In this document: piece by piece, positions 1 to 4,490 of the stretch
Layout: the number at the start of each line of letters is the position of its first letter
Numbering within the stretch: the first letter of the stretch is position 1
Source of the DNA: Archangium sp.
Lineage (GTDB): Bacteria; Myxococcota; Myxococcia; Myxococcales; Myxococcaceae
Assembly (NCBI GenBank): GCA_031367385.1
Contig: JANLPS010000205.1
Span: 1 to 10,473, forward strand
DNA: 10,473 nt
Direction: 5' to 3'
Made by a program: the position numbers and the translations under genes
The notes under the pieces: model-generated
The model's database searches: none
The model's input: only the letters and a program-made list of their open reading frames with translations
Told to the model about the DNA's origin: nothing

Positions 1-1030
1 CCCCGAATCGAGACCTGGGCGCCCAAGGCATTGAGTCCCTCCATCTCGGTGACCGAAGTCGCGTTGAGCTTGGTGATGTCCCACGCCCGCACTTCCCCTT
101 TCATGTCGCCGGTCAAATAGAGCCGATGGCCGGGCACCGCCGTACAGCTTCGAATGGTGCCTCCGTGACCGTGATGCGCGAATTCGACTTTTCCATTTCG
201 GAGGCTGACTCGGCGGACCACTCCGCTGGTGGCGGTGAGGACCGACCGATCTCCGAGAAAATCAGCGCATCGATTCACCCCGAGGGCCACGAACGTTTGA
301 AAATCTCGGCTACCGGTTGCCACACGCCAGACGTTGAGGGTGCCATCTTCGCCCACGCTCGTCATTCGCTCGCGATCGGCAGACAGCTCGATCTTTCGCA
401 CGACGCCGGCGTGAGCTGGCACTTGCCAGAGCAATTTCCCGGTGGCGAGGTCGACGGCCCCAACGACTCCGTCGGCCGTTGCAAACACAGCTCGGTCGCC
501 AGCGGCGAAGCCGAGATGTCGAATGAGCCTCGGCGTTTCAAAGACCCATTGAAGCTTCGCGCCTCGATACGAGCGCAGCCCATGAAAGCCGAGCGGGCCG
601 TCCAAAATGAGGCCTCCGTACACCAAGAGGTCTCCCTTCGGCGAGTAGCTGCCCTCGACCAACTCAGCGGGGCCAAAGTCGAGCTTGCTGATCTCTTCTC
701 CGTTGATTTTGCGAACCGACACCTGCGCGGGGCCCTCACCGACGGCGAAGCGTTCTGCGTTGGGCGAAGGGTTGACGCTGTAGCCTTTGAACTCGAGCGG
801 TGTTGTCTCAACAGTGCCTGTCTCGAGGTTGAGAACACGAAATGCATTATCAAGACACGCAAGCGCCACATGTCTCATGTCAGGGAGCAGGGTGCCGTTC
901 GGACACCGCACCTCCCAGCGGGCCAGCACCTTGAGCTCAGGTAACGAGAGCTGGAGTATTTCTTTGGTGCTCGTCGCAAGAACCCACCGCTCATCTCGGT
1001 CGACCAGCAGAACGCCCACCATTCCTCCCA
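1..1030 (-). repeat. Divergent WD40/beta-propeller repeats (continue beyond the window)
   Basis: HAGVVRKIELSADRERMTSVGEDGTLNVWR (413-324) and HGGTIRSCTAVPGHRLYLTGDMKGEVRAWD (167-78) fit the H-x~27-WD pattern. Intervening blades are degenerate (SPNAERFAVG, YSPKGDLLVYG, AVDLATGKLLWQ). Confidence 0.82.
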
Positions 1031-4000: not shown

Positions 4001-4490
4001 GCTGTGCGCGTGCGATGCCCAGGTCAAGCAGCTTGGGCATCAAGCGGCCCGCGCGCTGGAGCACCATCACGTTCGCCGGCTTGATGTCGCGGTGAATGAT
4101 TCGCTGTTCGTGGGCGGCGTTGAGCACTTCACAGAGCCGGTCGAACAGAGGCACGAATCGCGCGAGCGGAATGGGCCCTTGTTTTTCGAGCACCTGGTCG
4201 AGCGGCGTGCCCCGCACCAACTCCATCGCGATCCACAGAACGCCGTCGGGCTCGGAGCCGAACGCGTAGACGTGGGCGGCGTAGGGGTGGTCGAGCCGCG
4301 ACGCGAGACGAGCCTCACGCAGAAAGCGCTCAGCCCCACCTGCGCTGTCTTGCCGGAGCAGGACCTTGATGACGGCTTCGCGGCCGAGCGCCAGTTGTTC
4401 GGCGCGGTACACTTCTCCCGAGCCGCCGTGGCCGATCGGCTCGCGAACGACGAAGTCTCCAAAGGTCCTGCCGGTATAGGTGCCTGACAT
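1..4490 (-). CDS. Multidomain Ser/Thr protein kinase + nSTAND1-type STAND NTPase + TM helix + WD40 repeats (3' partial, >=1496 aa)
   Basis: Manual translation of the minus strand from ATG 4490-4488 (preceded by CCGGAGATCG, GGAG RBS) gives MSGTYTGRTFGDFVVREPIGHGGSGEVYRAEQLALGREAVIKVL..., with no in-frame stop to the window edge (last full codon ends at 3). Kinase motifs: GHGGSG (4433-4416), AVIK, HRDIKPAN (4094-4071), DLG (4025-4017), GTPHYMAPEQW (from 3785), DVYAL. NTPase motifs: PYLGLTSF..DADNFFGRE (from 2612), Walker A GPSGTGKSS (2495-2469), Walker B LVIDQFEE (2273-2250), ITLRDDF, HEALIVAWPRL. Then a TM helix and WD40-like repeats. Confidence 0.95.
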   Translation of the reverse strand, partial: MSGTYTGRTFGDFVVREPIGHGGSGEVYRAEQLALGREAVIKVLLRQDSAGGAERFLREARLASRLDHPYAAHVYAFGSEPDGVLWIAMELVRGTPLDQVLEKQGPIPLARFVPLFDRLCEVLNAAHEQRIIHRDIKPANVMVLQRAGRLMPKLLDLGIARAQPTVQDSQGISTSTPMSTPSGLHETQHEATHNRPAEATTSLPPDGKTNLPAEGKNDLLTQSDSLVLTHVGGVVGTPHYMAPEQWVDASGVDARTDVYALSILAYQCLTGRMPFSGKTVRALALAHATKPLPPLREWLSSELYDVLAKAAAKMPDQRFASALEFASALRQAAGLQSEATPLPQLDAGVRENVLAEAPQPIAEAVALLDSAHSAAQGVVAVRAIVTTFVRYLAVIALSARMRVGAGQSPEAAQVIELLRLLAQQGLETSQWLALVKAFLQPFADRREAHPVPELVRFFDASTGATGALALEELVSLDPPGKDALDDAANLYLHRAVPLVSKLLEAASFLYDYTLVVQRLTPERWMGTRRASRINASVESALQKNQVALVDGVGLPVLELTPFAQLIAPGGGAPEEVFFLDGPGRHGARLVALPTGLERQDPSVWGLLASLGLDVDPRKNSPDAERPPYLGLTSFSAGDADNFFGREHESEAFANRLRSERLLAVVGPSGTGKSSFVLAGVLPLLPAGWRALVFRPGSSPLVALNAMLVSAGFTLAPNDAAPALAADVLASALPPETTCVLVIDQFEELVTLCQDQAVRDDFATRLLAYAEHASGRLRVVITLRDDFLMRVLQLAVFRERLSNALQLLATPEPADLMRVVTEPARRVGYGFDDPALPQQMVEAVAQTPGALALLSFTASQLWELRDRHLRLMRGKAYEALGGVGGALAHHAEATMAAFTAEEQRLVRELFRQLVTGQGTRSVLSRQEAVEVLGDTKAVSVVLEKLLSARLLVASESPTGDDRIEIIHEALIVAWPRLVTWQREDADSARLRDSLRAAARQWEERGRPSGVLWRKETLTEYRLWRARYAGRLTVLEEAFAQASLKEERRAQTIRRSLAAVAFVTLAVGLIVVLRAYALSDASLAKATVSAAEAKLSVQRLWFEQARLAMTNDLPMEAFVYGSAAEQAGASGEALDHVMSEAALGLEGAVAVASLPLGGMVGVLLVDRDERWVLATSTKEILQLSLPELKVLARWEVRCPNGTLLPDMRHVALACLDNAFRVLNLETGTVETTPLEFKGYSVNPSPNAERFAVGEGPAQVSVRKINGEEISKLDFGPAELVEGSYSPKGDLLVYGGLILDGPLGFHGLRSYRGAKLQWVFETPRLIRHLGFAAGDRAVFATADGVVGAVDLATGKLLWQVPAHAGVVRKIELSADRERMTSVGEDGTLNVWRVATGSRDFQTFVALGVNRCADFLGDRSVLTATSGVVRRVSLRNGKVEFAHHGHGGTIRSCTAVPGHRLYLTGDMKGEVRAWDITKLNATSVTEMEGLNALGAQVSIR
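1278..1331 (-). other. Predicted transmembrane helix between NTPase and WD40 regions
   Basis: SLAAVAFVTLAVGLIVVL is 18 uncharged residues, preceded by the basic stretch ERRAQTIRR (positive-inside rule). Confidence 0.78.
1540..2612 (-). other. nSTAND1-like STAND-class P-loop NTPase domain with following helical region
   Basis: PYxGLxxF...FFGRE leader, VVGPSGTGKSS Walker A, LVIDQFEEL Walker B, ITLRDDF, LALLSFTASQLWE, YEALGGVGGALAHHAE and IHEALIVAWPRL. These are the motif series I recognise from nSTAND1/WD40 proteins. Boundaries are approximate. Confidence 0.88.
3500..4490 (-). other. Hanks-type Ser/Thr kinase domain of the large minus-strand protein
   Basis: Gly loop GHGGSGEV, catalytic Lys in AVIK, alphaC RFLREARL, catalytic loop HRDIKPANVM, DLG in place of DFG, APE, DVYAL, and C-lobe KMPDQRF. 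Domain boundaries are approximate. Confidence 0.93.

Follow-up and report, generated by a model that had tools for sequence, protein, structure and literature searches.

A STAND receptor kinase and a neighbouring double-glycine peptide gene at the purQ-purL site of Archangium sp., a candidate receptor-ligand pair

We have analysed a stretch of 10,473 nucleotides (nt) from Archangium sp. (NCBI GenBank assembly GCA_031367385.1, contig JANLPS010000205.1, positions 1 to 10,473 of the forward strand), hereafter the window, which is the entire contig C284 of an assembly (genome G000) of 7.97 Mb in 562 contigs. Its left part carries most of a gene for a large receptor kinase. The rest of this gene lies on contig C73, together with a small peptide gene with a double-glycine (GG) leader and a sigma54-type promoter motif. 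The features are given below, in window coordinates unless C73 is named.

1–4490, minus strand: receptor kinase gene, residues 1–1496 of 1,794; continues beyond the left window end
3486–4472, minus strand: Hanks Ser/Thr kinase, residues 7–335; Pfam Pkinase, 119.9 bits, catalytic motifs all present
2655–3467, minus strand: family-defining unnamed domain, residues 342–612; HEPN-like helical bundle and a small beta domain
1470–2612, minus strand: nSTAND1 NTPase, residues 627–1007; Pfam PF20703
2495–2472, minus strand: Walker A motif GPSGTGKS, present
2276–2250, minus strand: Walker B motif VLVIDQFEE, present
1278–1331, minus strand: predicted single transmembrane helix, residues 1054–1071; by hydropathy, Arg/Lys cluster on its N-terminal side
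1071–1277, minus strand: helical stalk from the helix to the propellers, residues 1072–1140; by alignment, 35% mean paralogue identity
1–1070, minus strand: first part of a degenerate WD40-type sensor, residues 1141–1496; four Cys (1196, 1212, 1408, 1449)
1–25, minus strand: overlap of 25 nt, the last 25 nt of C73 being the first 25 nt of the window
C73 10142–11061 (L001), outside the window, minus strand: remaining sensor part with the C-terminal Cys pair (1766, 1784), then the stop codon
C73 10025–10126 (L001), outside the window, plus strand: 33-codon GG-leader peptide gene with a ribosome-binding site
C73 9964–9979 (L001), outside the window, plus strand: sigma54-type -24/-12 motif; the peptide starts 61 nt further on
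4932–7145, plus strand: purL, part of the flank; the partner gene purQ is on C73

The receptor open reading frame (ORF) is real and intact. An earlier note on this DNA, made from the window alone, had pointed out an uninterrupted minus-strand frame outside the ORF track, and this was borne out. Read from 4490 to 3, the frame translates into 1,496 residues with no stop, and its start Met is the same as the paralogue starts in the alignment; it is missing from the ORF track because it runs off the contig end. The leftward extension proposed in the note completed the gene: the C73 frame adds 298 residues to give a total of 1,794, and the database protein P0002, also of 1,794 residues and from a source contig of 49.6 kb, is identical to the window frame over its first 1,496 residues. 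The in-frame stop or frameshift that the note had wanted looked for in the reads was not found in the Logan contigs, which span 97–4091 with no substitution in run X1 and 14–4915 with one silent substitution and no gap in run X2, these two runs being possibly the source samples and hence not independent of the assembly. A contig of run X3 reaches 1,614 nt beyond the left window end. No RNA holder of the sequence was listed, which has no bearing on whether the gene is expressed. A frameshift or a chance ORF is ruled out by P0002 and the gap-free run contigs. About 100 contig pairs of the G000 assembly overlap exactly at their ends, by 15–119 nt, so that many of its end-broken genes can be completed.

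In domain order, the protein consists of a Hanks kinase, an unnamed domain of 270 residues, nSTAND1, an Arg-flanked hydrophobic helix and degenerate WD40 propellers. The kinase is intact, as the earlier note had claimed: the Gly loop, AVIK Lys42, alphaC Glu59, HRDIKPAN, DLG and APE were all found, which covers the Hanks subdomain residues Lys (II), Glu (III), HRD..N (VIb), DxG (VII) and APE (VIII). Its activation segment holds a variable, Ser/Thr-rich insert of about 65 residues (approximately 166–230). The match to PF20703 scores 334.6 bits against a cut-off of 27.1 and covers profile positions 1–378 of 379; accordingly, the claim of a STAND NTPase with intact Walker A and B motifs stands, with its extent corrected from 1540–2612 to 1470–2612. 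Both Walker motifs are conserved in 130 of 135 full-length relatives, and the catalytic motifs are retained in 124–133 of the same 135. A search by sequence gave no solved-structure relative of the STAND part. Pfam and NCBIfam scans of the receptor protein found no lyase or cyclase domain, and in the NCBIfam models of class III/IV lanthipeptide synthetases only the kinase part is matched, far below the cut-off. By analogy with the STAND family, we infer that oligomerisation and trans-activation of the kinase would be carried over to this protein.

The domain between kinase and NTPase is conserved, comprises about 270 residues and has no Pfam match. Its structure model is confident (pLDDT 93), and its VIA comparison is led by the N-terminus of Roquin (Z 8.5), 1wwp (6.3) and the HEPN toxin 8xdj (6.0); the Roquin N-terminus contains a HEPN domain. 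Several HEPN-fold chains stand in the top VIA rows at Z 4.9–6.3, a range common for any helical bundle, and Foldseek gave no match in PDB or BFVD. The Rx4-6H motif is absent from residues 342–612, and over the stretch examined none of 152 relatives has RN..H; an active HEPN RNase was thus rejected. By language-model features, the domain (window 2616–3488) resembles small stand-alone hypothetical proteins, mostly of Bacteroidota, and more weakly proteins in which it is fused to EAD11 or SAM domains, which suggests an adaptor role. This domain, the activation insert and the C-terminal Cys pair are additions to the earlier description.

The transmembrane helix claimed in the earlier note was also found. 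It comprises 18 residues, has a Kyte-Doolittle 19-mer mean of 2.47 and follows an Arg/Lys-rich stretch. Among 194 relatives examined, 171 were scorable and 165 have the helix; in 148 of these 165, Lys and Arg are richer on its N-terminal side, which by hydropathy and the positive-inside pattern predicts an N-in/C-out orientation. This helix also follows nSTAND1 in almost every one of 80 loci, most of them of other phyla, and is therefore a general nSTAND1 feature. The part C-terminal of the helix comprises about 720 residues. The WD40 repeats of the note held in part, in that WD40-type Pfam models match residues 1208–1478 with every one of them below its cut-off, the repeats being degenerate. 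Language-model features return WD40 look-alikes for the second sensor half on C73 (score 0.94), and a blade profile made from the family's own repeats finds 14 blades in the canonical paralogue P0058 and two weak ones in the window protein. Considering the length, the 14 blades of P0058 and the WD40-like second half, the window protein is likely to carry two propellers. The GC content at third codon positions is 0.69–0.73 in the sensor versus 0.81–0.87 from kinase to STAND, and the C-terminal Cys pair occurs in 113 of 154 full-length relatives. The protein is thus predicted from its sequence to span the inner membrane once with the propellers outside. The best reading of its anatomy is a STAND receptor kinase that spans the membrane as one protein, in keeping with the note, and has a variable propeller on the outside.

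The peptide gene is found about 0.9–1.0 kb leftward of window position 1; it and the receptor gene stand tail-to-tail with 15 nt between them. The peptide gene encodes a Lys-rich leader of 27 residues ending in GG and a core of six residues, LSCTTW. Among 17,237 small ORFs, its codon adaptation (0.80) reaches the 99th percentile; the other seven linked peptides are unremarkable in this respect. A leader profile built from eight peptides of other genomes ranks seven of the eight linked peptides of G000 among the best 23 of 40,951 small ORFs and misses the C365 peptide. As a reference we used the leader motif of peptidase-containing ATP-binding cassette transporters (PCATs) as given in a part of PMC6363468. 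The leaders fit it with Leu at -12 in 23 of 28, Asp, Glu or Gln at -8 in 24 and Val, Ala or Ile at -4 in 25, two of the 28 leader rows being mis-cut. The cores are rich in Ser, Thr and Cys; 21 of 27 contain Cys, many have only 5–11 residues, and some contain none or one Ser/Thr. One precursor shows weak similarity, below cut-off, to models of class IIb bacteriocins and of leaders of radical S-adenosylmethionine (rSAM) ribosomally synthesised and post-translationally modified peptides (RiPPs).

The pairing of receptor and peptide recurs in the genome. On the one hand, seven of the eight paralogues have a GG-peptide gene nearby: six of the seven whose 3' end is assembled have such an ORF 15–170 nt from the stop, and the eighth paralogue, whose 3' end is on C19, has two peptides at 1.7 and 3.1 kb. 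The sole paralogue with none is that of C360, where an IS21 element stands right after the stop. On the other hand, the two nSTAND1 kinases of other layouts in the genome have no peptide, and among 60 other Hanks kinases a single case with a peptide within 3 kb was found, which adjoins a family locus; the chance expectation is about 0.75% per locus. Outside this genome, 62 further loci were reduced to 29 scorable ones (15 had no scorable gene, 17 no 3' end, and one was mis-picked), and a held-out profile found peptides at 10 of these 29; at 60 control nSTAND1 loci it gave two matches, both without a GG site. A retrained profile, which is built on most of the positives and includes some redundant loci, found peptides at 21 of 42 family loci elsewhere versus 0 of 57 nSTAND1 loci outside the family, these controls being mostly of other phyla whose leaders could differ. 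Judged by eye, with upstream and sub-threshold peptides included, the count rises to 26 of 42. With the retrained profile, the four FGE-type family members gave no peptide (0/4). The genome holds about 20 GG-leader peptides in total, and about 12 are therefore unlinked to the receptor family. They were seen in G000 on C451, C215, C413; C201, C512; C270; and C84, C428, C333, C92, C438, and include two small families with near-identical cores and one peptide with a repeated core.

The genome contains eight copies of the middle domain and eight kinases with the family motif, some of them split across contigs; C375 and C19 carry one gene, since a single gene of the same-genus genome G201 best matches both halves at consecutive positions. 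Identity among paralogues is 68% in the kinase N-lobe, 62% in STAND and 19–20% in the propellers, and the sensors and peptide cores of the eight all differ. G201 has 12 matches to the family. The middle domain is matched by 685 clusters at 50% identity, 309 of them at E<=1e-30, and it defines a subfamily of at least 309 such clusters; a one-off fusion was rejected on these numbers. The family is present in at least 11 of 401 genomes of the phylum (at least 5 of 201 genomes in a smaller tally), both tallies being lower bounds with 6 and 12 candidates scored per genome, respectively. Named relatives carry the labels Deltaproteobacteria or Kofleriaceae, and with the middle domain as query no family member was found in viral contigs and GenBank phages. 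In the STAND tree the window gene groups (99/97) with four others, two of which are G201 genes with tail-to-tail peptides; this layout is accordingly probably inherited. At the locus itself, purL (window 4932) and purQ (G000 C73 6513–7855) stand about 8 kb apart with the receptor module between them. Two relatives have a closed purQ-purL site, two others carry 2.2 or 4.6 kb of different DNA there, and the site looks like an insertion hot spot.

Some further members and relatives were observed. A family receptor of G201 (L113 2255–7657) is broken by an in-frame stop into 1,249 + 551 codons. In G000, L011 (C281) and L012 (C269) are two other kinase-nSTAND1-helix genes that have neither the middle domain nor a peptide, and their C-terminal ends are one coiled coil and one FGE-like domain. 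L014, L015 and L016 are FGE-like-ended family members in records labelled uncultured Clostridia and Blastocatellia, with no peptide detected.

The upstream region of the peptides was scored with the sigma54-type -24/-12 consensus. The motif at the window locus agrees at 10 of 12 consensus positions, against a background of 0.4–0.5%, and no sigma70 promoter was found upstream of this peptide. Six of the eight linked peptides of the genome have such a motif (>=10/12) at -52 to -69, and none of the 12 unlinked peptides has one even at >=9/12. Genes for sigma54 activators occur at 17 of 78 family loci versus 3 of 77 control loci, a contrast weakened because the controls are mostly not myxobacterial. 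Thirteen activators were found by motif, and 9 of the 11 that were scanned have FHA above the Pfam cut-off. At L133 (16025–18426, G000 C360) we observed, besides the IS21 element, two FHA-sigma54 activator genes upstream of that receptor.

Exporters with a C39 peptidase are encoded in the genome on C365 (a full PCAT by Pfam) and C277, and none at the window locus. One paralogue lies inside a peptide-export cluster with genes for HlyD, the receptor, the peptide, TolC, PCAT and C39-VKOR, its halves on C259 and C365 being joined by position in the protein with no overlap. This cluster (L126 7427–15845 and L007 4188–5144; G000 C365, C259) also contains two metallo-beta-lactamase-fold genes. The second C39-peptidase exporter gene (G000 C277 32571–38623) stands on a contig on which no GG peptide was detected. 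Tailoring-type neighbours occur at other family loci, namely ATP-grasp, LanC-like, LanB, glycosyltransferase and arginase-family genes; L121 of G164 has PCAT and LanB genes, and C19 has ATP-grasp and LanC-like genes. At the latter (L129 9618–12809), two genes for identical precursors flank the LanC-like gene and the ATP-grasp gene adjoins the receptor, which is a small uncharacterised RiPP cluster. At L109 of G201 (2347–4201), an arginase-family gene with an N-terminal extension follows two peptides with Arg-containing cores; we take it to be possibly a peptide arginase.

From these sequences we hold with moderate confidence that the protein is a receptor for the neighbouring secreted peptide, which would signal by STAND-driven clustering of its kinase to FHA-sigma54 activators; the conserved GG-peptide neighbour points to a self-made peptide as the cue. 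The precursor would be cut after GG and exported by a shared C39-peptidase transporter, at some loci after enzymatic modification. The mature core would re-enter through the outer membrane and bind the periplasmic double propeller. Binding would free the STAND switch, and the resulting oligomerisation would bring the kinase domains together, so that they could trans-phosphorylate the Ser/Thr-rich activation insert; the HEPN-like domain would have no catalytic role in this and would act in coupling or as a dimer module. An FHA-domain sigma54 activator may then read the phospho-signal and switch on target promoters, including that of the peptide itself, so that the loop would be autoinducing. 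For cell-density or kin signalling, every paralogue would provide a private channel of its own. Among the four cues listed in the earlier note (envelope, phage, prey and kin), the peptide neighbour fits kin, and phage was not supported.

Several observations weigh against this receptor-peptide reading. At the window locus, the leader is two residues short of the consensus spacing and reaches only a weak 6.8 bits with the other-genome profile (rank 21, amid chance hits), the core has only six residues, and no activator gene stands beside the receptor. Under the strict rule, 21 of 42 family loci elsewhere have no peptide within 3 kb, and the limits given above for the retrained profile, its controls and the activator contrast count here as well. 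In other genomes, 0 of 8 linked peptides reach 10/12 for the sigma54-type motif (three score 8, 8 and 9, and five have none). In myxobacteria, kinases commonly have FHA activators beside them, and the FHA-activator enrichment over non-myxobacterial controls is therefore not specific. Type I export bypasses the periplasm, so that an exported peptide would have to re-enter it. Over 27 pairs, sensor similarity does not follow core similarity (Mantel r -0.08, p 0.81), so that co-evolution of sensor and core was not significant; a few of the closest sensor pairs do share core motifs, namely C178/C480, L145/L149 and window gene/L114. An even number of Cys after the helix, as disulfides would lead one to expect, was found in 34 of 48 and 48 of 57 proteins of two small sets, and in the large set in 89 of 154 after the helix versus 78 of 154 before it, a weak difference that does not make Cys parity proof of a periplasmic location.

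The same ligand logic could also serve conflict rather than communication. In this case the peptides would act as weapons, either bacteriocin-like or RiPPs, and the kinase would be a receptor for surveillance or immunity that detects its own or a competitor's peptide class and switches on protection or retaliation. The LanB, LanC-like, ATP-grasp, glycosyltransferase and arginase-family genes that adjoin some peptides are consistent with weapons, as are the precursor that weakly resembles class IIb bacteriocin and rSAM-RiPP leader models below cut-off, the Cys in 21 of 27 cores, and the patchy distribution (11 of the 401 genomes searched in the phylum) with a variable insertion site between purQ and purL. 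However, many cores of 5–11 residues are short for killing peptides, most loci, including that of the window, have neither a tailoring nor a dedicated immunity gene, and a kinase of 1,800 residues with an ATP switch suits signalling rather than sequestering. We consider that weapons under surveillance are unlikely here.

If the peptide were output only, the propellers would sense an unrelated outside cue, such as prey, phage or envelope damage, and the peptide would be an alarm or a weapon. The sigma54 motifs and nearby FHA activators fit an output equally well, sensor and core do not co-vary, and some receptors have no detected peptide. However, one shared peptide would do for an output, and an own, distinct peptide within about 170 nt for each paralogue would be left unexplained; the few closest sensor pairs that share core motifs also count against it, although shared ancestry explains them too. 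Considering this, we regard a pure output as quite unlikely.

The earlier note had proposed an immune or non-self signalling receptor. On this reading the protein would be an Avs/NLR-type anti-phage or anti-invader receptor with the kinase as toxic effector, and the peptide genes would be passengers. Passages of PMC8195603 define nSTAND1 in predicted conflict systems, and passages of PMC12803255 list WD40 and FGE sensors among defence-associated STANDs while showing defence and non-defence STAND clades intermingled. A conserved effector, a variable sensor and lineage-specific expansion would also suit defence, and the kinase domain matches PADLOC kinase models, e.g. PD-T4-6. These kinase matches are generic, however, and were the only ones: with PADLOC 2023, the 25 neighbour proteins of the eight paralogues and the HEPN-like/STAND part gave 0 of 26 at 1e-5, so that a defence island had no support. 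Characterised Avs proteins sense phage proteins inside the cell, whereas the sensor here is predicted outside, and the peptide pairing (7/8 versus 1/60) would be unexplained. Accordingly, an anti-phage role, for which the neighbourhood gave no support, appears improbable to us.

Very improbable is a peptide-tailoring or handling enzyme whose kinase would phosphorylate the Ser/Thr-rich precursor in the cytoplasm while the middle domain binds the leader, since, although the cores are rich in Ser, Thr and Cys, the middle domain marks the subfamily with peptides, and class III/IV lanthipeptide synthetases use kinase domains and give weak NCBIfam matches to the kinase part, there is no lyase or cyclase domain, some cores have none or one Ser/Thr, the middle domain resembles HEPN bundles rather than RiPP recognition elements, the outer domain, large and variable, would be left without an explanation, and four FGE-type family members have the middle domain with no detected peptide.

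The remaining genes of the window were also annotated. A GH26 glycoside hydrolase (7165–8379, plus strand) has a signal-like N-terminus and a MYXO-CTERM tail just above the cut-off. A TPR protein follows (8193–9407, plus strand), whose true start is probably later because the listed one overlaps the GH26 gene by 187 nt. The ORF at 9555–10151 (plus strand) encodes a Cys-rich, secreted or lipoprotein-like protein of 198 residues that contains short Cys repeats and is matched by neither Pfam nor NCBIfam. An Rfam scan of the window and C73 gave no match.

Returning to the reading of a receptor for a self-made peptide, we propose more tentatively that NLR-like STANDs have been turned into transmembrane receptor kinases for self-made peptides, with private, diverging codes and FHA-sigma54 autoinducing loops. 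If this is true, a myxobacterial cell would hold up to ten or more receptor-peptide cassettes, and social diderms would have a peptide language with which to sense density or recognise kin, with a STAND switch gated across the membrane; this would be multi-channel peptide signalling in a diderm, built of components that have no relation to the histidine-kinase circuits known from Firmicutes. The STAND receptors of bacteria that have been characterised respond to phage proteins inside the cell, and hardly any ligands are known for the numerous membrane Ser/Thr kinases found in myxobacteria and planctomycetes. The family supplies a candidate ligand next to its receptors, so that what propeller kinases sense becomes testable with short synthetic peptides.

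Compared with known systems, the architecture is less novel than the earlier note implied. The kinase-nSTAND1-TM-propeller layout is already known: Kaur et al. 2021 (PMC8195603) named nSTAND1, and the source data of its Fig. 2 list 'Pkinase+nSTAND1+TM+BetaPropeller', with the NTPase clade and domain order of the window protein. That file holds 'nSTAND1+TM+BetaPropeller' 304 times, 'kinase+nSTAND1' 42 times and 'HEPN+nSTAND1' 0 times, and section 7 of the paper deals with FGS sensors and the sensing of invaders; membrane topology and peptides are not its subject. In comparison with these layouts, the window subfamily adds the HEPN-like domain of 270 residues and a neighbouring GG-peptide gene. 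The variant that this subfamily represents, with its HEPN-like insert and an own peptide gene for each copy, is undescribed; a search of the open literature, mostly at title level and with subscription journals outside it, found no publication in which a STAND kinase is paired with double-glycine peptides.

The antiviral STANDs covered in the passages of PMC12803255, including Avs, bNACHT and Apaf-1-like WD40 proteins, share the effector-NTPase-repeat sensor layout, and WD40 sensors occur among them. Avs and bNACHT sense phage proteins in the cytoplasm, whereas a conserved helix splits NTPase and sensor in the window protein, and the window family, unlike them, has no defence genes detected among the 25 neighbours of its eight paralogues. 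Closer in topology are the single-pass Ser/Thr kinases of Planctomycetota and myxobacteria in PMC11032199, which like the window protein have a cytoplasmic kinase, one helix, a predicted periplasmic WD40 array (WD40/TPR arrays in that paper) and lineage-specific expansion; the passages concerned do not mention a STAND switch or a peptide partner. STAND targets with predicted periplasmic domains are noted in a passage of PMC10907252. The lyase-kinase-cyclase architecture of class III/IV lanthipeptide synthetases is not matched by the window protein.

In Firmicutes, GG pheromones act in the circuits ComC/ComAB/ComDE and BlpC/BlpH/BlpR, and lantibiotic autoinduction uses NisK/NisR. These circuits have in common with the window family a GG-peptide gene beside a membrane sensor kinase and a PCAT that is shared or supplied in trans, and in both the peptide and the sensor are variable. 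On the other hand, the window family has a Hanks kinase, a STAND switch and WD40 propellers instead of a histidine kinase and response regulator, and it has a predicted FHA-sigma54 output, a diderm host and eight parallel copies. By this analogy, the window system most likely works like the ComC/ComD circuits without being a member of them.

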